Positions 15,512-63,531 of a stretch of DNA of 64,000 nucleotides are shown here, piece after piece (the stretch's first letter is position 1; each line of letters starts with the position of its first letter). The notes beneath the pieces are model-generated. The model saw only the letters and a program-made list of their open reading frames with translations, was not told where the DNA came from and did no database searches. Source of the DNA: Thermodesulfobacteriota bacterium (GTDB lineage: Bacteria; Desulfobacterota_D; UBA1144; Nemesobacterales; CSP1-2); the NCBI GenBank assembly GCA_035559815.1, contig DATMAT010000029.1, forward strand, positions 2,485 through 66,484, written 5' to 3'. Position numbers and translations under genes: made by a program.

Positions 15512-15958
15512 ATGAAAAGGTTCATGTTACTCTTAGTAATTCCTCTTACGGTCTTTGTTTTTGCATCTTATGGGTGTAAAGAAAAGGAACAGGCTAAAGA
15601 AGGGGTGGGGGAAGTTAAGAAGGAAGCCAAGGAAGAGGCTAAACCGGTGGCAAAGCCCAAGCCTAAGAAGGCTGAACCGGCCACCAAGGTAAACATAAAT
15701 ACAGCAACGGCTGGAGAGCTTGCTCAGGTACCGGGCATCGGGGAAAAGTTGGCCAGACGGATAGTGAGGTACAGAGAAAAGCGTGGGGATTTTCAAACAA
15801 TCGAGGATATAAAGAAAGTGAAAGCCAATTGGGATAAAAGGTATAATAAGGCTAAAAACTACATCACTGTGGGTGGGCCTGCGGCGCCTGCACCGGGAGG
15901 CGGAGAGACTGCTCCAGGAGGAGCCGAGAGCACACCCGCACCCCAGCCTGCTCAGTAA
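15512..15958 (+). CDS. comEA: ComEA-like helix-hairpin-helix DNA-binding lipoprotein
   Basis: VNINTATAGELAQVPGIGEKLARRIVRYREKRGDFQTIEDI HhH motif; lipobox SYGC. Confidence 0.7.
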   Translation: MKRFMLLLVIPLTVFVFASYGCKEKEQAKEGVGEVKKEAKEEAKPVAKPKPKKAEPATKVNINTATAGELAQVPGIGEKLARRIVRYREKRGDFQTIEDIKKVKANWDKRYNKAKNYITVGGPAAPAPGGGETAPGGAESTPAPQPAQ

Positions 15959-16057: not shown

Positions 16058-16226
16058 CGCCCCGATAGTATTATTTCTTGCCACGGGTTAACACTAGTAC
16101 ATTATCATTGCTAACGCGGTGAAGCAATCTCGTTTTTGGATTGCTTCGTCGCTATGCTCCTCGCAATGACAACTGAGACGGTATTATTGTAAGATTAAAG
16201 TTTATTAATAGTGGGAGTGACTTATC

Positions 16227-24952: not shown

Positions 24953-25075
24953 TTCACCCTTCGACTGCGCTCAGGGTGAACGGTTTTTATTCCTTATTTC
25001 CAGCGGATGTAAATCCGCTCATGCTGAGTTTAGTCGAAGAATGAATTTAAAATGTAGGGAGTTCATCCTTCGTCA
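24953..25075. repeat. family A composite hairpin repeat
   Basis: cccttcgactgcgctcagggtgaacgg...cagcggatgtaaatccgctcatgctgag...gtcgaag. Confidence 0.7.
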
Positions 25076-25979: not shown

Positions 25980-26270
25980 CCATACTTCAACCCTTCGACT
26001 ACGCTGGACTACGGGATGAGAGGATTTGCATCCGCTGGAAATGAGAAAAAACTCCGTTCATACTGACCTTGTGAGTCTGTCGAACGATCGAAGAATGAAT
26101 ACCTCAAGAAATTCATACTTCGACCCTTCGACGATGCTCAGGACTTCAGTATGAGCGGATTTACATCCGCTAAAATAATTAATGATTAATAAAACCCGTT
26201 CGTCCTGAGCCGGGTCGAAGGATGAACACCTTACGTTTCAAATTCATCCTTCGATTGAAACGGATGAGTG
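25980..26270. repeat. cluster of family A repeats (several units, both orientations)
   Basis: multiple cccttcgac...gctcagg / gtcgaagg units with inner agcggat-N-atccgct hairpins. Confidence 0.7.
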
Positions 26271-28524: not shown

Positions 28525-28802
28525 TCCTTAGCTTTCCTCCCTATGATTGTATATATATAACATCCTGCAATCAAGTGCCTAAAATAATATGTGATATTGC
28601 GGGATTTACAAGAAGAGTGGTAACAGCAGAGCCGTGACAAGTAATTAATGCTGATATTCATGCTGGAGCGTTTATTTGGCAAAATCATAAGAGATAGGAA
28701 TCTTAATGAATAGTTGTTAGTAGATGGTGTTTAGTTTATAGGTTAATGCTCGACGAGTCTAGCTATTCGACAATTCCATGATAGGCCTGATGAAGGATGG
28801 AA

Positions 28803-28975
28803 GGTGAACACAACTCTTGATAAACAAAAGATCATGCTTCGACCCTTCGTCTCTGCTCAGGGCTCAGCATGAGCGTATGCATGCATCCGCTAAATAAGGA
28901 GAGATAAAAAACCGTTCACTTTGAGCCGGGCCACCCTGAGTTAGACCGAAGGGTCCAAGGGTGAACACCTCGGGT
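28803..28975. repeat. family A repeat cluster
   Basis: cgacccttcgtctctgctcagggctcag...agcgtatgcatgcatccgct...gaccgaagggtcc. Confidence 0.65.
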
Positions 28976-29359
28976 GTCATATTCGTGAGCAAGAAAAAAT
29001 GAAAGAGGAGAGTTGGGATTCCTCGGGCGTTATTGCGAGGGAGAGAAACGACCGAAGCAATCCCTTGAAAAAAGAGATTGCTTCTATAAAGCCAATTATC
29101 CTCTTGCTCTACCATGGGAAGAGGGAGAATTGTCGAAAATCCGCTCGCCCCGAAAGGAATAAAATCATACAATCCCAAGGATTGACAAAATACGTCTGGA
29201 ATCAGTCAATTTGACAATTTTTGTCGTAAAAATGGGGTAATTTGCGCAAAATGCTACTTCTGGGAGGGTGGATAAAGGTCGGATTTGTTGCATTTTGGTT
29301 AAAGAATATCTTGGCTTTTCAATAGATTGTATTATCATTAAAGAGCGAAACGGCAAGGT

Positions 29360-29375
29360 TGGCACGGGGATTGCA
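29360..29375 (+). promoter_or_regulatory. sigma54 (-24/-12) promoter of pilin-like gene 1
   Basis: TGGCAC-gggga-TTGCA exact RpoN consensus 44 nt upstream of ATG; GACAA-N3-TTGTC palindrome at 29213-29225 as candidate enhancer site. Confidence 0.6.
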
Positions 29376-29418
29376 AAAACATTGGACAATTCAAAATTTT
29401 TTATAGGAGGTAGTCGAG

Positions 29419-30009
29419 ATGTTTAAGTCAAGACTAGTTAGTAAGAAGGGCGAAAAGGGTTTTACCCTGATCGAGCTGTTGGTGGTCGCGGCCATCATCG
29501 GCATATTGCTTGCGATCGCTATTCCTAACCTTATCAAGGCTAGGATGTCCGCGAACGAGGCGAACGCGAGAAAAGCCATGCAAACTTTAAGGGATGCAGA
29601 AGGTGAGTACTTCGAGCAGGACCTGGATAATAATGGAACTAGGGACTACATCGATGAAATAGGTAACCTTACTGGTACTACGCCTTCTTTACGTGACCCT
29701 GAAGGCACTGCTGATGAGCAAGATGCGCTTGTAGACAGTAGTTTTGAGGGGGCAAGCGATACTGGGGGTGCTGATTGTAGTGATCCAAAGGCGGGATATT
29801 GCATTAGATGGGATGCTGCTGTCGTTGCCAATGCAGCTGGCCTTTTTGACGATTTTGGTTGGCAGTCAACTATGACTAGCTTTAACAAGGTTGGAAGAAG
29901 AGACTACGCAGTATACGGGGATGGAGTTATAAGATGTGACGTCAGCACATCAGGAGTCGGCCAACCTGGAACATTTGAAGTTGATCGGACTGACCCTGGT
30001 TGTGATTAA
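29419..30009 (+). CDS. type IV pilin-like protein (prepilin N-terminal methylation domain)
   Basis: KGFTLIELLVVAAIIGILLAIAIPNL class III signal; C-terminal Cys pair; TDPGCD end. Confidence 0.7.
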   Translation: MFKSRLVSKKGEKGFTLIELLVVAAIIGILLAIAIPNLIKARMSANEANARKAMQTLRDAEGEYFEQDLDNNGTRDYIDEIGNLTGTTPSLRDPEGTADEQDALVDSSFEGASDTGGADCSDPKAGYCIRWDAAVVANAAGLFDDFGWQSTMTSFNKVGRRDYAVYGDGVIRCDVSTSGVGQPGTFEVDRTDPGCD

Positions 30010-30479
30010 TAACAACCTAAGACTAAGTACAAAAGGGTGGCTAGAGTATCTTATTCTTGCCACCCTTTTAGTTTTATTAAATCGCTTTAACCAGATTATA
30101 AGACACTATCCAATTAAAAAACATTGCTGTTTATTAGAGTTGAGTATACCGTATAAAACAGGCTCGTAACTGACTAAAGGTCAAATATTTCCCTCGAAAA
30201 ATGTGGGTCTTATATTGTTCTTAATTTTTTGCAAGCTGTTTTAATTTCTAGACTCAGCATTAGAGGTTCTTCGGAGCCTTGTAATGTTAGCATTTTATCG
30301 GATTATTAAAACAAATATTGAAGGGTTGTTATAGAGTATGCAGGGAACACACGACAAAAATTGTCATTTCCTGCAAATTTTGTCAAGACATTATAATTAC
30401 TACTTTCTAAGAAATTAAATTATCAATAAAAACTCTTTGTTCTCAGTGTGTTATATATCCAAAATCAGCCGTTGCTTTC

Positions 30480-30495
30480 TGGTACAAACATTGCA
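30480..30495 (+). promoter_or_regulatory. sigma54-like promoter of pilin-like gene 2
   Basis: TGGTAC-aaaca-TTGCA (GG/GC conserved); GACAA-N3-TTGTC palindrome at 30353-30365. Confidence 0.5.
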
Positions 30496-30531
30496 AGAAA
30501 GATTATTAATTAAAAATTAGAGGCGGTTCTA

Positions 30532-31125
30532 ATGTTTAATTTAGGTATAAATACTGAAAAAGGTTTCACCCTTATTGAACTCTTGGTAGTAGCAGCCATC
30601 ATCGGAATATTACTTGGTATAGCGATTCCAAACCTTATTAAAGCACGTCTTTCGGCTAATGAGTCTAATGCCAGAAAAGCCCTTCAGACTATTAGAGATG
30701 CAGAATATGAATATTCCGAACAAGACTTAGATGATAATGGCGCAAGAGATTATACTAACTTTATAGGTTCGTTGGGTGCGTCAGGTACTTTGCGTGATCC
30801 TTCCGGTACCAACGACGAACAAAATGCGCTTCTGGATATCACTTTTGAAGGTGCAGTAGTGAATGACGGAAATGCAGCGGCTACCGCCAATTGCACTGAC
30901 CCAAAGGCAGGATATTGCATTGGATGGAGTGGAGATGTTAACACCGATTCTACTACGCTAGCAGGTGATTTTGGTTGGGAGGCTTCTATGACAGGTGCTG
31001 GTAAGACCGGAAGAAAAGATTTTTCTGTTTTTGCCGACAAGGTTATCAAATGTATTGCTACTACCCAATCTAGTGGCAGCGCAGGACAATTTGAATCATC
31101 CCGTACCGACCCTGATTGTGATTGA
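30532..31125 (+). CDS. type IV pilin-like protein, paralogue of 29419-30009
   Basis: same N-terminal prepilin domain, conserved DPKAGYCI(R/G)W and TDPDCD C-terminus. Confidence 0.7.
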   Translation: MFNLGINTEKGFTLIELLVVAAIIGILLGIAIPNLIKARLSANESNARKALQTIRDAEYEYSEQDLDDNGARDYTNFIGSLGASGTLRDPSGTNDEQNALLDITFEGAVVNDGNAAATANCTDPKAGYCIGWSGDVNTDSTTLAGDFGWEASMTGAGKTGRKDFSVFADKVIKCIATTQSSGSAGQFESSRTDPDCD

Positions 31126-31292: not shown

Positions 31293-32222
31293 ATGCTCAA
31301 AGTAGAAAATCTCGTAAAGGACTTCGCCACCGGATTTCTGAGAAAGAAGGTTCGGGTGCTCAAAGGTGTGTCTTTCTCAGTGAACAAGGGAGAGATATTC
31401 GGTTTTGTCGGGCCCAATGGTGCGGGGAAAACCACGACGTTTAAAGTGGTTCTGGGTTTTGTCCCCATTACAGATGGAAATGTTGAATTGATGGGGAAGC
31501 CACTCGGTGATGTGGATGTAAAAAAGCACATAGGCTACCTCCCGGAGAATCCATATTTCTATGATTACCTTACGGGCGAGGAGCTTCTTCGATATATGGG
31601 AGAGTTGCATGGGCTAAATGGAAAAGGTCTCTCCGCAAGAATCGATGAGCTTCTGGAGAAGGTAAAAATGTCTCATGCCCGAAAGGTGCAGTTGAGAAAA
31701 TATTCAAAAGGTATGCTTCAGAGGGTGGGTGTTGCTCAGGCCCTTATAAATGACCCTGATTTTCTTATCCTTGACGAGCCTATGACCGGGCTTGACCCTA
31801 TCGGACAAAGAGAAATAAAGGACCTGATTCTAGAGGAAAAAAAGAGGGGAAAAACCATACTTCTCAGTTCCCACATGCTCTCCGATGTCGAGGCTTTATG
31901 CGATAGGGTGGGGGTGGTTATGAACGGGAAAGTAGTCAAGATTGGCGAGCTGGGGAAGCTGTTTGAAGAGATTCATACGGATTATGAGATGCTTCTCAAG
32001 GGTGTTGATGAAAGGATTATGAACAGCCTTAGCGACCTTAAAGTTTCAGTCGAAAAAAGAGCAGGATTTACTGTTCTCAGGTTCGACGAAGATATTAAGA
32101 CCAGGGTATTCCAGGTCGTCTCTGATTCCGGTGCGGATATCGTCTCGCTTCATCCTTTAAGAAAATCTCTCGAAGGACTCTTCGTTGAGGAAGCGAAGAA
32201 GGATGTTCATCTTGAATCATGA
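31293..32222 (+). CDS. ABC transporter ATP-binding protein
   Basis: Walker A GPNGAGKTT, signature YSKGMLQRVGVAQAL, Walker B LILDEP. Confidence 0.85.
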   Translation: MLKVENLVKDFATGFLRKKVRVLKGVSFSVNKGEIFGFVGPNGAGKTTTFKVVLGFVPITDGNVELMGKPLGDVDVKKHIGYLPENPYFYDYLTGEELLRYMGELHGLNGKGLSARIDELLEKVKMSHARKVQLRKYSKGMLQRVGVAQALINDPDFLILDEPMTGLDPIGQREIKDLILEEKKRGKTILLSSHMLSDVEALCDRVGVVMNGKVVKIGELGKLFEEIHTDYEMLLKGVDERIMNSLSDLKVSVEKRAGFTVLRFDEDIKTRVFQVVSDSGADIVSLHPLRKSLEGLFVEEAKKDVHLES

Positions 32223-32632
32223 ACCGGTTTAGCCACGAATCTACACAGATGAACACGAATGAAAAAGATATTTTATATAAAGAGCTTTCTTATAAAATAA
32301 TTGGATTAGATATGGAAGTGCATAATAAACTGGGTTATGGATTCTTAGAAAAAGTCTATGAAAACGCTCTACTGATATTGTTACCGCGTAAAGATATCGA
32401 AGCAAAACAACAAGCACCGATAAAGGTATATTTCGAGGGGGAGGTTGTGGGAAATTACTTCGCTGATATTTTAGTTGAGGATAAAATTATATTGGAAATT
32501 AAAGCTTTAGACAAAATAATAGATGTCTACATTGCGCAGACGTTGAACTACTTAAAAGCAACTGGATTACAGTTAGCAATCATCTTAAATTTTGGTAAGA
32601 AGAGATTAGAGTACGAAAGAATCGTTAACTAG
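32219..32632 (+). CDS. GxxExxY-family protein (likely true start ATG 32249)
   Basis: LGYGFLEKVYENAL = G-x-x-E-x-x-Y signature; about 125 aa. Confidence 0.65.
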   Translation: MNRFSHESTQMNTNEKDILYKELSYKIIGLDMEVHNKLGYGFLEKVYENALLILLPRKDIEAKQQAPIKVYFEGEVVGNYFADILVEDKIILEIKALDKIIDVYIAQTLNYLKATGLQLAIILNFGKKRLEYERIVN

Positions 32633-35296: not shown

Positions 35297-36019
35297 GTGA
35301 AATCAATGTTAAGAAAGATATATGATATTTTTATGTTCACTGCCTATGGCTTTCTCAAAACATCCTTATTTTTGTCTCTTTTTTGTCTTTCTATTTCTTT
35401 CTTCCTGAAATCCAAGAATATTTTTCATATAGAGGTAAAGAGTATAGAACCCTTGGGGGCGCTGGTGACCCCGACAGGTGGAACAAAACGGCTAGGTTCA
35501 ACAAATGCTGAAAGTATGGGCCTCAAAACGGATGAGGCCGATATTTTTAAATTTATTCTCAGGTTTTCCGACCGAATATCCACTGCAGATGCAAAAAAAC
35601 TGGCCAAACTTATTGACGAGGAATGCGAAATTTACGGTCTAGACCCATTTCTTATTCTGGCTATGATTTATGTCGAGAGTAAATTTGACCCGGTCGCAGT
35701 ATCAAATAAGGGAGCCATCGGTTTGATGCAGGTCATGCCTGTAACCGGTGAATTTATAGCCGGGAAATTGGGTATTCCTTTCAATGGAGATAAATCTCTT
35801 TTTGACCCGGTCGTCAACGTGAGGTTAGGCATATATTATTTTTCATCACTGATCAATCGCTTTGAGAGTATAGACCAGGCGCTTATTGCCTATAACGCCG
35901 GTCCAACCAGGTTCTTAAATACTGCAAGTTTGAGGAATGGAAAATCTACATACTTAACTAGAGTTTTACATTTTAGAAGTCTCCTGGAAGACGAAGGCAT
36001 AATAACCGAGGAGAGCTAG
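35297..36019 (+). CDS. lytic transglycosylase (SLT domain) protein
   Basis: IYVESKFDPVAVSNKGAIGLMQVMP...AYNAG; GTG start in track, ATG at 35306 with gaggtga RBS more likely. Confidence 0.7.
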   Translation: MKSMLRKIYDIFMFTAYGFLKTSLFLSLFCLSISFFLKSKNIFHIEVKSIEPLGALVTPTGGTKRLGSTNAESMGLKTDEADIFKFILRFSDRISTADAKKLAKLIDEECEIYGLDPFLILAMIYVESKFDPVAVSNKGAIGLMQVMPVTGEFIAGKLGIPFNGDKSLFDPVVNVRLGIYYFSSLINRFESIDQALIAYNAGPTRFLNTASLRNGKSTYLTRVLHFRSLLEDEGIITEES

Positions 36020-43443: not shown

Positions 43444-44316
43444 TTAATATCGATCCAATTTAAGAAGACTGTAGTACCCTAATACCTTGTCTACATAATC
43501 TATGGTTTCTGAGTATGGTGGGATTTGAAAACCGTGCCTTATCACCGAACCCTTGCCGGCGTTGTAAGCGGCCAGTGCTAGCCTGAGGTCGCCGCCGAAG
43601 TAATTTATCAGGTCTTTCAGGAACCTTATACCCCCGTCTATATTCTCCTCGGGGTCGAAAGGGTTTCTAACCCCATAGTCTTTTGCCGTCTCCGGTATGA
43701 GCTGCATCATTCCCATTGCTTTCTTGGGCGAAACTGCAAGTGGGTTGAAATTAGATTCAGCTTTAATTACCGCTTTGACCAGATAAGGGTCAATACCGTG
43801 TCTATTACTTGCGATAATAATTTCACTTTCGTAGTCATATTTGGCTTTTTCGAGTCCATTCCTGTTTTCTTTCGACCTGCTCACCACTTTGTATTTGGAG
43901 AGCGGGAAAAACGCCCTATAAATTGCGGCCTCGCTCATGTATCCATCATGCTCCTGCTCTCCTGAGTTACCCATATCGCAGCTCAATGTTTCGTATCGGT
44001 CTTCTCTTTTGATCATGACCACACAATCTGAGATCTGGGCCAGTACCACCTCTTCGGTGTAAACGAGGTCGATCCTTTCTCCTTCTGCGTATGTCTTGAG
44101 CTTGCCGGTATTCAGGTTTTTTATTATTGCTGTCCCGGTATCTTCTTTAACAATCGTACCGAGAAGGGATAGTTCCAAGTTGGATTTGGTGAGGTCCGCT
44201 GATAGCAGGTCTTTTCTAATATTTGCCTTTTCTATTTCTAAGCCTTGAGAGCCGTAAGGGTAAACAAATAAAATCCCCAAAAGGATGTTCAATATTATCG
44301 GAATATATCTCTTCAT
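43444..44316 (-). CDS. lytic transglycosylase (SLT domain) protein
   Basis: VIKAESNFNPLAVSPKKAMGMMQLIP...AYNAG. Confidence 0.65.
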   Translation of the reverse strand: MKRYIPIILNILLGILFVYPYGSQGLEIEKANIRKDLLSADLTKSNLELSLLGTIVKEDTGTAIIKNLNTGKLKTYAEGERIDLVYTEEVVLAQISDCVVMIKREDRYETLSCDMGNSGEQEHDGYMSEAAIYRAFFPLSKYKVVSRSKENRNGLEKAKYDYESEIIIASNRHGIDPYLVKAVIKAESNFNPLAVSPKKAMGMMQLIPETAKDYGVRNPFDPEENIDGGIRFLKDLINYFGGDLRLALAAYNAGKGSVIRHGFQIPPYSETIDYVDKVLGYYSLLKLDRY

Positions 44317-44401: not shown

Positions 44402-45829
44402 CTAAAAAACGTGCTTTATCAGTTGTAGTCTATTGGTAATGCCGTATTTGCTGAATATATTCGCCAGGTGGGTCTTTACCGTGTTTTCGCTTATGAAGAG
44501 GGTATTGGAGATTTGCTTATTGCTGTAACCTAAAACAATAAGGTTCACAATCTCCTCCTCCCTTCTGGTTAGCTTGGGCTGCAAGCCAGACTTACTTTTC
44601 CTCACAGGTATGAGCCGGGTTAAGACATTGGTTATGGAGCTCATCTCCATCCAAATCGAATCTTTGCTTACCGTCCTGATTGCTTGGATTAGATGCTCCT
44701 TGTTAGATACATCGGTTAAACACCCGCGCACTCCGGAGGAGATATTCTTTATAACCTCGTCTTCATCGATGGTATGTAGCAATAGAAGCACCTTGGTTTC
44801 GGGGCTCTTTTCCCGGATTGAATTCATGAGTTCAGCGATATCCGAGTTGCATATCGCTGCATCGATAAGGAGGACATTGGGCCGGCTCTGCTCGATAGAC
44901 GGAATAATCTCTTGGTCCGAGGAGGCCTCCGCTATAATCTCAATATCCCTCTCTGGTTCCAGGATCTTACGTATTCCCTCTCGGAATATGGTTGAACAGA
45001 TTATTATTAGTTTAATTTTTTCAGTTGGTTCCGGTTGCTGAAATTTTTTAGTCCTAGTTTCTAAGAGACCGTTCAACTTTCGAAATGCTAATACCACGCC
45101 GGATATATTACCGATGTCATCCCGGATCGGGGCTGCACTCTTTTCGATGAGCACTTCTTTTCCATTCTTGGAAATGAGTATCACCTGATGGCCTCTTATT
45201 GGGCTGTTATTCAGCACATTCTTGACCGGGTTTGGCAGGGGGGAACGAGTTTCCTCCGTTATTATTTTGAACACATCGGATATATTTTTACCTAAGGCCT
45301 CTTCTTTTTCCCATGCAGTTAAGGATTCAGCCACTGGATTCATGAAAGTTATTACCCCTTCGGTATCGGTGGTAATAACCCCATCGCCTATACTCTTAAG
45401 TGTTAGAGCAAGCCACTTCTTTTTCTCTTTTAGTTTTTTATCCACATGATGTTTGTGAAGGGCTATTTCGATGCTTGAACGCATTTCCTTGATTTCGAAG
45501 GGTTTATGAATGTAACCGAACGGTTCTGTCATCTTGACCCGTCTTAGTGTCTCTTTATCGGAGTAAGCAGTAAGATATATCACCGGGATGTCGAATCTTG
45601 TGTATATTTCCTTGGCTGCCTTGACGCCGTCTATCTTGCCTTTTAGGACAATATCCATTAAAACTAAGTCTGGTCTTATCTCTTCTGCTTTTTGAATAGC
45701 CTCCTCTCCTGAAGAGACGATAGCCGGTACGGTGTAGCCTAGGTTTCGGAGCCGGTTTTTTATGTCTCTTGCTACGATTTTTTCATCCTCGACAACGAGT
45801 ATTCTAGCACTGTCCGCACTTGCCTCCAT
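44402..45829 (-). CDS. response regulator: REC - PAS - second REC-like - LuxR-type HTH
   Basis: N-terminal LVVEDEKIVARDI...DLVLMDI receiver; C-terminal LTRREEEIVNLIVLGYSNKQISNTLFISENTVKTHL. Confidence 0.7.
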   Translation of the reverse strand: MEASADSARILVVEDEKIVARDIKNRLRNLGYTVPAIVSSGEEAIQKAEEIRPDLVLMDIVLKGKIDGVKAAKEIYTRFDIPVIYLTAYSDKETLRRVKMTEPFGYIHKPFEIKEMRSSIEIALHKHHVDKKLKEKKKWLALTLKSIGDGVITTDTEGVITFMNPVAESLTAWEKEEALGKNISDVFKIITEETRSPLPNPVKNVLNNSPIRGHQVILISKNGKEVLIEKSAAPIRDDIGNISGVVLAFRKLNGLLETRTKKFQQPEPTEKIKLIIICSTIFREGIRKILEPERDIEIIAEASSDQEIIPSIEQSRPNVLLIDAAICNSDIAELMNSIREKSPETKVLLLLHTIDEDEVIKNISSGVRGCLTDVSNKEHLIQAIRTVSKDSIWMEMSSITNVLTRLIPVRKSKSGLQPKLTRREEEIVNLIVLGYSNKQISNTLFISENTVKTHLANIFSKYGITNRLQLIKHVF

Positions 45830-49116: not shown

Positions 49117-49162
49117 ATTTACACCGTTTTCATTTTTTATCGCCTGCAAAAATAACACCCAA

Positions 49163-49305
49163 GGTGTTCACCCTTCGAACGGGTGAGCGGTTTTTATCCC
49201 TCTTTTTATTCAGCGGATGCGTGCGTCCGCTCATGCAGAGCCTGTCGAAGCATGGTGTATCTTAAGGCGTTCGTCCTTCGACTGGGCTCAGGACGACCGG
49301 GTTGA
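49163..49305. repeat. family A repeat cluster
   Basis: gttcacccttcgaacgggtgagcgg...cagcggatgcgtgcgtccgctcatgcagag...cttcgactgggctcaggacgaccgg. Confidence 0.7.
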
Positions 49306-58744: not shown

Positions 58745-58989
58745 CCCCGTGAGATAAGTTTTACTATCCAACGGGTTGAGATACGCAGTGGTATTAACCC
58801 ACGAAACGAGGGTCTCTCAGGTCTCACGGAATTATCTCTTGGGGTTAATACTGCTTTCCAAAAAATTAGAAACCAGTGGTTCACACTCGCAAACAAGGAC
58901 TTTAGATAGGTAAAAAGTCTTTTTAAAATCAGGTTTACTTTTCTATGTTTGTTATGCAAGTGCTGTTCCAACCCTATTCGTTGAAATTG

Positions 58990-59165
58990 CCTTTTTAACC
59001 CTGCTCACCCTTCGTCTCCGCTCAGGGTGAAGGGCATGGTATTGCTTGGAGTTTTAGACCTGCCTTCATGGTGAGCGGAGTCGAACCATGAGTAGTTCGA
59101 TTGCGCTCAAAGCCTGTCCTGAGGAATAAACTCAGTCGAACCATGGACCCTTCTAAGCATAATCT
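58990..59165. repeat. family A repeat cluster
   Basis: near-copy of 57720-57870. Confidence 0.7.
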
Positions 59166-59298
59166 CGTTTTTTCAATGGATTGCTTCGTCGCTTTGCTCC
59201 TCGCAATGACACCCAGGAAATGGCGACTCTTCTCTCTGACTCCACGCGAAGCAATCTTTTAATTTCGGACAAGGTTGACCGCTACAAATGATGGCTTA

Positions 59299-62989: not shown

Positions 62990-63531
62990 ATGAGTTATGA
63001 TCCTGATAGACATCAGCGTAGGTCTATTAGATTAAAAGATTATGATTATTCTCAACCAGGAGCGTATTTTGTAACGATATGTACGCGTGACCGGGAATGC
63101 CTTTTGGTGATATTGTTGAAGGTCGAATGTTTTTGAATGAAATCGGTTTTCTTGTGAGTGATGAATGGATCCGTTCAGTTCAATTACGAAAAGAAATCGA
63201 ATTAGATGAGTTTGTTGTAATGCCAAATCATCTACACGGTATTGTTATAATTAGAGAATCAAATGTAGGGGCGACCGGCCGGTCGCCCCTACCTAAGGGA
63301 CCCAAGCCGAGATCAATAGGGGCGTTTATTGCAGGTTTTAAATCCTCTGCAACAAAACGAATAAATATAATGCGTGGTACCTCCGGTTTCCGTATATGGC
63401 AACGTAATTATTACGAACGCATCATCCGAAACGAAGATGAATTAAATGAGATCAGAGAGTATATCGCTAATAACCCCCTAAAATGGGAATCGGATGAAGA
63501 AAACCCGGACGTTTACCCTATGGCTTTTTAA
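62990..63531 (+). pseudogene. REP-associated tyrosine transposase (RAYT, IS200/IS605 Y1 family), frameshifted
   Basis: frame 2 from 62990: MSYDPDRHQRRSIRLKDYDYSQPGAYFVTICTRDREC; frame 1 from 63097: (M)PFGDIVEGRMFLNEIG...VVMPNHLHGIVII...WQRNYYERIIRNEDELNEIREYIANNP; one missing T in ctttt(t)gg joins them. Confidence 0.65.
63265..63292. repeat. REP-type palindrome embedded in RAYT coding sequence
   Basis: gtaggggcgaccggccggtcgcccctac encodes VGATGRSPL. Confidence 0.5.

Follow-up and report, generated by a model that had tools for sequence, protein, structure and literature searches.

Probable sigma-54 control of two type IV pilin genes

Control of the pilin gene pilA by sigma-54 and PilR is known from Pseudomonas, Myxococcus, Geobacter and Xanthomonas (PMC6058289, PMC6211767, PMC7170775, PMC3333781). 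In Myxococcus xanthus, the sigma-54 promoter of pilA requires an NtrC-type activator (PMC6211767), and pilS and pilR lie directly upstream of pilA in the pil cluster. Pseudomonas aeruginosa has a single pilA, whose RpoN-dependent promoter is preceded by PilR sites in which TGTC-type elements occur (PMC6058289, a summary of Jin et al., 1994). As described in that summary, these sites are NifA-like TGT-N11-AGA and GTCT elements, without a 15 bp TGACAA-N3-TTGTCA palindrome (PMC6058289). This verbal description was the only PilR consensus found in the literature; no motif was found for Geobacter or Myxococcus, and nothing was found on pili of Dadabacteria. In Desulfovibrio vulgaris, a relative within the Thermodesulfobacteriota, the sigma-54-dependent response regulator DVU2114 has a regulon with a conserved motif upstream of pilin genes; these are Flp/Tad-type pilins with adjacent assembly genes (PMC3333781). 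Two major pilins sharing one machinery are represented by PilA4/PilA5 of Thermus thermophilus and PilE1/PilE2 of Streptococcus sanguinis, which have 12-13% sequence identity to the pilins presented here. Sigma-54 control is not known from these two-pilin systems.

The locus described below lies in a 64 kb stretch of Thermodesulfobacteriota DNA, which was analysed as a whole and is called the window. It is well supported that it follows the known sigma-54/PilR-type scheme of pilin control, with an enhancer motif that is defined here for the first time and a conserved two-pilin module. It probably comprises two monocistronic type IV pilin genes of an uncultured, Dadabacteria-like member of the Thermodesulfobacteriota, each with its own sigma-54 (-24/-12) promoter. 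No new kind of mechanism is revealed; the regulation is familiar from other pilins and is met here in a little-studied lineage.

Two prepilin genes

The window contains two prepilin genes, both on the forward strand:

29419..30009, + strand: pilin A prepilin gene (196 aa; leader M1-G14; mature start FTLIELL; Cys120/128/173/195)
30532..31125, + strand: pilin B prepilin gene (197 aa; leader M1-G11)

Both products carry a class III signal, KG/FTLIELLVV, in which the slash marks the cleavage site, and share the cleavage context KG/FTLIELLVVAAIIGILL. Each short, basic leader ends in Gly, and the hydrophobic stretch behind it has Phe+1 and Glu+5. PF07963 (36.2 and 33.6 bits for A and B, cut-off 21.2) and TIGR02532 (32.6 and 31.6 bits, cut-off 16.3) recognise both proteins, and DUF2950 matched weakly, below its cut-off. 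Over their full length, A and B are 62% identical; the GC3 of pilin B is 29%, against 43% in pilin A. The initial annotation had described paralogues with common termini and divergent centres, and the segments bear this out: 46 of 53 positions are identical in the N-terminal helix, 4 of 10 and 3 of 14 in two central loops, and 11 of 21 at the C-terminus, where both proteins have TDPxCD. Each also has four conserved cysteines, and C120, C128, C173 and C195 are invariant among 34 sequences. A motif EQDLDxNGxRD is a candidate for calcium binding. A structure model of moderate confidence shows a long N-terminal alpha1 helix on a four-stranded antiparallel beta-sheet, the pilin fold; Foldseek found no significant match for it in the PDB, and the best structural matches were type IVa major and minor pilins.

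The best N-terminal match in NCBIfam is typeIV_PilA_Myxo, and a PDB sequence match is 8tj2. Like PilA of M. xanthus, the two proteins are large, with longish leaders (11-14 aa here), and unlike in P. aeruginosa, the pilin is neither single nor small. However, the typeIV_PilA_Myxo score is 47 bits, far below the cut-off of 400. A and B are thus no equivalogs of this family, and their globular domain is unrelated in sequence to that of the M. xanthus protein.

Alternatively, the two proteins might belong to a type II secretion system, as its major pseudopilins, or to a type IV filament other than a surface type IVa pilus, for instance a competence pilus; the regulation would be unaffected. This is improbable. 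With the GspG model TIGR01710, the two reach 35.3 and 34.3 bits where 88.85 are required, with the N-terminus only, and ComGC gives 41 where 75 are required. The mature proteins, at 182-186 aa, are longer than the GspG/EpsG and ComGC chains of known structure, which have about 85-135 aa, and their genes stand alone, with no gsp or comG operon and no adjacent gsp genes. The type IVa major and minor pilins as best structural matches, and exposed loops that are hypervariable at strain level, typical of surface pilins, also argue for a surface type IVa pilus.

Promoter motifs

Upstream of each type IV pilin gene lies a sequence of the sigma-54 class:

29360..29375, + strand: sigma-54 promoter of pilin A, TGGCAC-GGGGA-TTGCA = TGGCACGGGGATTGCA (GG at 29361-62, GC at 29373-74)
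30480..30495, + strand: sigma-54 promoter of pilin B, TGGTAC-AAACA-TTGCA = TGGTACAAACATTGCA

Measured against TGGCAC-N5-TTGCW with GG and GC 10 nt apart, they match at 11/11 (A) and 10/11 (B) positions. They end 44 nt (A) and 37 nt (B) before the ATG, and transcription is predicted to start near 29386 and near 30506, respectively. On either strand of the window, TGGYAC-N5-TTGCW has these two matches only (0.07 expected), and none of 100 shuffles gave two or more.

For phylogenetic footprinting, 66 orthologous metagenome loci (L082-L147, ±6 kb) were collected with a pilin alignment restricted to the C-terminal part. An earlier search of genome contigs with the full-length alignment had returned 80 unrelated pilins (L002-L081) and was discarded, the pattern being that of the generic pilin N-terminus. 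The related loci, 415.7 kb in all, contain 81 matches to the sigma-54 motif, of which 67 fall within 110 nt upstream of the ATG of a family pilin. Across the distinct upstream regions, 39 of A type and 16 of B type, neither GG and TTGC nor the distance between them varies. In B-type regions, the consensus reads TGGTAY-N5-TTGCW, and its fourth position is T in 94% of the 16 loci. That each pilin has a sigma-54 promoter of its own, as first proposed from the sequence of this locus, is supported both by the uniqueness of the motif in the window and by this conservation.

Probable enhancer sites

Sigma-54 promoters strictly require an enhancer-binding protein. Candidate binding sites, and an IHF-like site, are found upstream of the promoters:

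29183..29197, + strand: distal imperfect site of pilin A, TGACAAAATACGTCT (3 mismatches to TGACAA-N3-TTGTCA; 29 bp upstream of the core)
29212..29226, + strand: core enhancer (UAS) palindrome of pilin A, TGACAATTTTTGTCG (inner 29213-29225, GACAATTTTTGTC)
29244..29257, + strand: possible degenerate third site of pilin A, GCGCAAAATGCTAC (weak in the window; assigned from the alignment)
29317..29329, + strand: IHF-like site between enhancer and promoter of pilin A, TTTCAATAGATTG (1 mismatch to WATCAANNNNTTR)
30352..30366, + strand: core enhancer palindrome of pilin B, CGACAAAAATTGTCA (inner 30353-30365, GACAAAAATTGTC)
30371..30385, + strand: second, imperfect site of pilin B, CTGCAAATTTTGTCA (3 mismatches)

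The core palindromes start 147 nt (A) and 127 nt (B) upstream of the promoter motif; counted from the -24 GG, their centres lie 142 bp and 122 bp upstream. Within the window, GACAA-N3-TTGTC has only these two matches (0.06 expected), and the related loci preserve it, in agreement with the palindrome initially noted upstream of each promoter. It is kept as TGACAA-WWW-TTGTCA across the A-type loci and is also kept in 18 B-type upstream regions. The same sequence emerges from a position-weight matrix of 37 sites, in which each position is 89-100% conserved and 12 of the 15 reach 92-100%. Site centres lie at -102 to -185 from the GG in A-type and at -105 to -138 in B-type regions, and 44 of 50 palindrome matches in the 415.7 kb are located 100-300 nt upstream of a family pilin ATG. 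When 24 A-type and 18 B-type upstream regions are aligned, the palindrome(s), GG-N10-GC and the Shine-Dalgarno sequence are all that is conserved, the rest having diverged. Dyad-symmetric sites about 80-200 bp upstream of the -24 element, conserved together with the promoter, are what an enhancer would look like.

Second sites occur about 29-31 bp away in many A loci. The distal site of pilin A recurs in the alignment of the closest relatives (L083, L094 and L082), and the third site aligns with a conserved block containing AAAAATGTCAC, which other loci have about 30 bp downstream of their core palindrome. An IHF-like sequence with at most one mismatch was found in 17 of 63 related promoters, compared with about 6.6 expected from shuffles, and the matches cluster at -36/-45. 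This is only suggestive of a putative IHF site between enhancer and promoter.

In a different reading, the palindrome is the operator of a non-AAA+ dimeric repressor or activator, or overlaps the -35 box (TTGACA) of a sigma-70 promoter, and the sigma-54 motif is either activated from another site or unused. TTGACA is indeed present at 29211-29216, a sigma-70-like TTGGCT-16-TATCAT lies at 29311-29338, and no activator gene was found in the window or the related loci. However, both half-sites are conserved symmetrically, beyond the needs of a -35 box, no usable -10 element follows TTGACA after 16-18 nt, and TTGGCT-16-TATCAT is conserved in the closest relatives only. The 100-185 bp to a conserved -24/-12 element are the classic geometry of an enhancer, and an activator is needed at such promoters in any case. 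The operator or sigma-70 reading is therefore considered highly unlikely, and the palindrome is taken below as a probable enhancer. The label "PilR-type" for its presumed activator is only an analogy, since the palindrome shares no published hallmark of P. aeruginosa PilR sites except TGTC; in relation to M. xanthus, the enhancer sequence is here defined from comparison alone.

Predicted transcription units

Additional elements delimit the two predicted transcripts:

29405..29410, + strand: Shine-Dalgarno sequence of pilin A, AGGAGG (AGGAG invariant in the 24-locus alignment)
30033..30075, + strand: intrinsic terminator after pilin A, a GGGUGGC...GCCACCC stem followed by UUUUAGUUUU
30520..30523, + strand: Shine-Dalgarno sequence of pilin B, GAGG

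The terminator hairpin has a folding energy of -26.8 kcal/mol (z = -5.9), which none of 200 shuffles equalled, and on this basis A and B are predicted to be separate transcription units. It stands at the start of the spacer between the pilins, whose AT-rich character, remarked on from the outset, corresponds to 31-32% GC over 30050-30500. Rfam and tRNA scans of the locus gave a single match, hairpin noise on the terminator.

Gene neighbourhood

Unlike in M. xanthus, no regulator or pilus machinery is encoded nearby. Pfam models were run on 61 substantial ORFs of at least 110 aa in the window, together with motif regexes; nine unscanned ORFs are nested in larger, scanned ORFs on the opposite strand. 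Neither a pilus-assembly gene nor an enhancer-binding protein nor rpoN was detected by these means in the 64 kb. Like the window, the 66 loci (±6 kb each) lack rpoN and genes for an enhancer-binding protein, a prepilin peptidase and a pilus ATPase, and the same partner genes (rpoN, activator, pilus machinery) are missing from a 20 kb view (±10 kb) of a closed 2.67 Mb genome. A closed relative of this size is contig ctg321914_67x_c of ERZ25072999. No GAFTGA protein and no RpoN-box protein occurs in the window or in L082-L147. The initial observation that assembly genes are lacking nearby thus extends from the window to 66/66 metagenome loci and to 20 kb of the closed genome. The sole response regulator in the window is LuxR-type (44402-45829), and a 3.9 kb Logan contig past one window end encodes an AAA protein that is not an enhancer-binding protein.

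Synteny is conserved: the pilins are flanked on one side by BirA, TenA, a hypothetical protein, a TPR protein and a lipoprotein, and on the other by an ABC ATPase, a permease and a hypothetical protein. Functional linkage was rejected as its cause; because plainly unrelated housekeeping genes are among the neighbours, it is read as general conservation of gene order. The upstream TPR protein was considered as a PilW/Tgl-type pilotin and rejected: its scores of 71 (cut-off 154) and 60 (cut-off 225) reflect similarity of the generic TPR kind, and it lacks a lipobox.

Age of the pilin pair

The two-pilin arrangement with promoter and palindrome is conserved in dozens of related uncultured (Dadabacteria-like) genomes, and the order A then B is fixed. 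Orthologues of gene 2 have 57-81% identity to gene 2 of the window (about 60-80% for most; at least 20 loci), but only about 55-62% to gene 1. The design with two promoters does not hold everywhere, as B has none of its own in more distant loci. Between A and B, synonymous sites have reached saturation (pS 0.76), the dN/dS of the globular part is 0.135, and values of about 0.06-0.17 for A and B indicate purifying selection, not the diversifying selection for which a comparison of the paralogues had been suggested. By this comparison, A and B are judged to be two old orthologous lineages and not the outcome of a recent duplication. Saturation together with a dN/dS of about 0.1 marks their difference as old functional specialisation; of the antigenic or functional diversification initially proposed, the functional part stands, and ongoing antigenic variation between the two copies does not. 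That B arose by a recent duplication of A and is being driven apart from it by diversifying (antigenic) selection, as tandem genes with 62% identity and the lowest identity in two central loops might suggest, can practically be dismissed in view of the orthologue identities, the constant position of B-type downstream of A-type genes, the substitution pattern, and a loop conservation that is higher in B (0.63) than in A (0.36-0.44).

Proposed mode of action

The following sequence of events is proposed. A single NtrC/PilR-class enhancer-binding protein, whose gene would lie elsewhere, is predicted to bind TGACAA-N3-TTGTCA as dimers 100-185 bp upstream, where a strong site often has one or two weaker companions at a distance of about 20-30 bp. 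The activator would then oligomerise and reach the promoter by DNA looping across an AT-rich region, which sometimes matches the IHF consensus, and its ATP hydrolysis would open the sigma-54 closed complex. Each mRNA is predicted to have a short leader and a strong ribosome-binding site, and that of gene A would end at the intrinsic terminator. A prepilin peptidase and a pilus machine encoded elsewhere would cut the prepilins after Gly(-1) and assemble them. A is probably the main, surface-variable subunit. B, whose -24 element (TGGTAY) is consistently weaker, may be a second and more constrained pilin; it would be co-regulated with A but tuned differently, and would either co-polymerise with A or form a second filament.

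Implications

The comparison provides a comparatively validated cis-regulatory grammar for an uncultured class, consisting of the TGACAA-N3-TTGTCA enhancer, the sigma-54 promoter and, possibly, an IHF site. By implication, surface filaments in these organisms are under the control of sigma-54 and an NtrC-type activator. With the motif, complete genomes can be searched for the regulator and the remaining regulon.

A more far-reaching and rather doubtful proposition is that the A-then-B pair with its shared enhancer motif is a class-wide module of the Dadabacteria in three senses jointly. If so, one activator would grade two filament subunits via different -24 elements (TGGCAC in A, TGGTAY in B). 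Recombination would exchange a cassette made up of A's globular domain and the whole of B, with its upstream breakpoint in the invariant N-terminal helix, and this exchange would keep old alleles under phage or predator pressure. The pilin family would be unusually conserved, with more than 50% identity class-wide and no more than about 23 clusters at the 50% level. An uncultured lineage would then offer a sigma-54 regulon that is tractable and defined by its motif.

Divergence at the pilin segment

The two-pilin module, together with a sharp divergence hot spot, suggests selection on the cell surface, which is relevant to the ecology of Dadabacteria with regard to attachment, DNA uptake and phage receptors. 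Strain-level diversification exists as an excess divergence of the whole pilin segment over its flanks: in close relatives, this segment is much more diverged than the surrounding DNA. The pattern suggests that pilin alleles may be exchanged by recombination; the alternative would be positive selection in loops 111-120 and 131-144. The divergence break is located inside gene A, just past the conserved N-terminal helix.

The pilin genes and their products

The window contains only two prepilin genes, the tandem pilins A and B, both of which were proposed by the initial annotation. The features discussed here are as follows.

29317-29329: IHF-like WATCAANNNNTTR match, between enhancer and promoter of pilin A
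29419-30009, + strand: pilin A ORF, 196 aa
30033-30075: terminator, a strong hairpin with a U-tract 3' of pilin A (-26.8 kcal/mol, z = -5.9)
30532-31125, + strand: pilin B ORF, 197 aa

In both proteins G|FTLIELLVVAAIIGILL comes after a short, basic leader; both exceed the cut-offs of Pfam N_methyl and NCBIfam IV_pilin_GFxxxE, and they are 62% identical end to end. The possibility that they are pseudopilins or competence pilins carries little weight, since the GspG and ComGC models, like Myxococcus PilA and other full-length models, match only the N-terminus and remain far below their cut-offs. Database entries HWP92205.1 and HWP92206.1, which derive from a metagenome-assembled genome labelled Thermodesulfobacteriota, match the two proteins exactly. 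A homologue with 70% identity and the same gene neighbours is labelled Candidatus Dadabacteria, a class of Thermodesulfobacteriota in the NCBI taxonomy. The family is compact and clade-specific, since a profile search returned just 23 clusters at E <= 1e-30 among 1.84 billion representatives. Identity exceeds 50% throughout the family, which seems high for a major pilin.

A nearly invariant motif, E-Q-D-L-D-x-N-G-x-R-D-[FY], lies at the end of the alpha1 helix (pilin A residues 66-77, 29614-29649; same place in pilin B). It resembles a DxDxDG/EF-hand-type calcium loop, one position off the strict EF-hand pattern. The window also encodes a DsbA-like oxidoreductase (1382-1984, +), relevant to a pilin with four cysteines, and two SLT lytic transglycosylases (35297-36019, +; 43444-44316, -), the second with a weak T2SSC/GspC-like N-terminal match under the cut-off. 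A ComEA-like helix-hairpin-helix protein (15512-15958, +; TIGR00426, 67 bits against a cut-off of 53) could connect DNA uptake by the organism with type IV filaments.

Predicted promoters and enhancer palindromes

Each pilin gene was described with its own sigma-54 promoter motif and upstream palindrome, and both sequence elements are confirmed. The promoter pattern TGGYAC-N5-TTGCW occurs in the 64 kb only at 29360 and 30480 (0.07 expected), and the palindrome core GACAA-N3-TTGTC only at 29213 and 30353 (0.06 expected). A strong Shine-Dalgarno sequence precedes pilin A and a weaker GAGG precedes pilin B. Beyond the hairpin that follows pilin A lies the spacer, AT-rich as described, with 31-32% GC. 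The only other one-mismatch match to the sigma-54 consensus in the window is TGGAACAGCACTTGCA at 58955-58970 (-), with no palindrome nearby.

A scan with just the globular part of the pilin yielded 66 orthologous metagenome loci (L082-L147). In an alignment of the regions upstream of 24 A-type and 18 B-type genes, the orthologues of pilins A and B, the TGACAA-N3-TTGTCA(C) palindrome, the -24/-12 element and the Shine-Dalgarno sequence are kept amid otherwise unalignable DNA; in many A loci the palindrome is followed ~30 bp downstream by a second ...AAAATGTCAC site. No variation in GG, TTGC or the distance between them occurs among 39 distinct A-type and 16 distinct B-type upstream regions, the consensus being TGGCAY for A and TGGTAY for B (fourth-position T in 94%). 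In the palindrome matrix (37 sites), 12 of 15 positions are 92-100% conserved and one 89%, and the three central ones are W. Measured from the GG, the palindrome centre lies 102-185 bp upstream in A and 105-138 bp upstream in B. An operator for a protein other than an enhancer-binding protein, or a sigma-70 -35 box, is a reading of the palindrome to which little weight is given.

Of the 81 promoter-pattern matches on both strands of the related loci (415.7 kb), 67 lie at most 110 nt upstream of the ATG of a family pilin; of the 50 palindrome matches, 44 sit 100-300 nt upstream of such an ATG. Several of the exceptions can be accounted for. One match is at a contig end, ahead of a truncated B gene; some represent a second upstream motif of one subclade, and others a coding-sequence mimic in IGILLA codons. 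The former, TGGCAY-N5-TTGCC, accompanies the proximal promoter and precedes the pilin ATG by ~200 nt (L099:5643, L119:5640, L124:1287, L142:5653). The latter is TGGTATTCTTCTTGCT, which conserved pilin N-terminus codons (…IGILLA…) can spell (L117:5627, L121:766, L127:4361, L128:493, L134:558), a false sigma-54 motif that calls for care when pilin genes are scanned for motifs. Among the more distant loci, B follows A by 100-200 nt without a promoter of its own; the dual-promoter design therefore marks the subclade of the window and its neighbours. The IHF-like match, allowing at most one mismatch, recurs in 17 of 63 relatives against ~6.6 expected, an enrichment that is only suggestive.

The evidence best supports a model in which one NtrC/PilR-class activator, which would be encoded elsewhere, drives enhancer-dependent sigma-54 transcription of both pilin genes. 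We infer sigma-54 use and activator binding from conservation and geometry. Control of pilA of this type is described in Pseudomonas, Myxococcus, Geobacter and Xanthomonas (PMC6058289, PMC6211767, PMC7170775, PMC3333781). The present system would work like PilR-RpoN-pilA. It cannot be assigned to a "PilR regulon", given that the searches revealed no regulator and that the TGTC core is the sole part shared with described P. aeruginosa sites. The regulatory module is real and well conserved, the initial annotation read it correctly, and its kind of control is already known; in this uncultured class its value lies in a newly defined enhancer motif, a conserved two-pilin arrangement and a probable recombination hot spot.

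Gene neighbourhood

Pilus-assembly genes had been noted as missing nearby, and this was confirmed more widely. No enhancer-binding protein, rpoN, prepilin peptidase or pilus machinery was found by Pfam and regex searches of the window, by regex searches of L082-L147, or in the precomputed Pfam annotation within +/-10 kb of the locus in a closed genome. The Pfam scans covered the 61 substantial window ORFs (>=110 aa), each of the nine remaining ones being nested, in antisense, in a larger ORF that was scanned; the regexes targeted the GAFTGA loop, RpoN box and PilB/T motifs and, in the window, the prepilin motif. Throughout the clade the pilins are flanked in conserved order by BirA, TenA, a 113 aa protein, a TPR protein and a lipoprotein to one side, and to the other by an ABC ATPase, an ABC-2 permease and a 356 aa protein. 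These neighbours are read as general synteny. The TPR protein was considered as a PilW/Tgl relative and rejected, the similarity being generic.

Between the two ABC genes lies a PD-(D/E)XK (PDDEXK_3) gene (32219-32632, +). It looks like a variable insertion, since it occurs in just two related loci (L094, L122), against 39 and 29 for the ABC genes, and the surrounding GC is ~34-36%. A partial IS200-like Y1 transposase match (Y1_Tnp, only profile positions 64-121 of 121) is located at 63097-63531 (+). L119 and L137 are separate pilin-family loci ~160 kb apart on one 313 kb contig (Ga0315338_1000144), which means that the pilin module is present more than once in some genomes.

Age and divergence of the pilin pair

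A-type pilins are 51-82% identical to window A (62-82% in closer loci), and B-type pilins are 57-81% identical to window B and ~55-62% to window A. Where both are present, B always follows A on the same strand; some genomes, the closed 2.67 Mb one among them, have A alone. A clean distinction between A and B exists at just three positions (M54L, Y166F, G169K). The variable parts are loops 111-120 and 131-144, with a mean column conservation of 0.36-0.44 in A and 0.63 in B. A recent duplication is improbable, as synonymous sites between window A and B are saturated and B-type orthologues are closer to window B than to A. Together with the set order of the orthologue groups and a dN/dS of 0.06-0.17 among orthologues, this saturation points to an old pair of separately constrained, long-standing paralogues. 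The pair is thus not the outcome of recent antigenic divergence. In the subclade of the window (window, L082, L083, L094, L095), third-position GC is 29-37% in pilin B against 41-47% in pilin A; the order is reversed in the GC-richer L084 and L089.

Nucleotide identity, by segment, between the window and the two loci most closely related to it (L094, L083)
Flanking genes: 84-97%
Promoter and first ~60 codons of A: 92-98% (L094), 83-95% (L083)
Remainder of A: 50-66% (L094), 69-71% (L083)
A-B spacer: 14-56%
B: 58-81%
ABC ATPase gene: back up to 84-97%

The pilins show a dS of 1.1 to saturated and a dN of 0.12-0.19, against 0.19-0.63 and 0.01-0.09 in the flanking genes. In distant relatives, the pilins have diverged no more than the flanks (60-70% amino-acid identity). 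Allele replacement by recombination, rather than positive selection of point mutations, probably underlies the divergence of the pilin segment, because dS and dN are both raised and identity breaks off sharply within the conserved helix-coding region. The far greater divergence of this segment supports the diversification proposed in the initial annotation in a modified form, in which it would have occurred between strains.

L094 and L083 lack an equivalent of the stretch 28700-29000, which lies upstream of the pilin enhancer. Short dispersed intergenic repeats (~50-100 nt, 75-82% identical, some hairpin-forming) at 28830-29085, 26113-26214, 24969-25028, 49128-49242, 59161-59235 and 16121-16170 look like REP/MITE-like elements.
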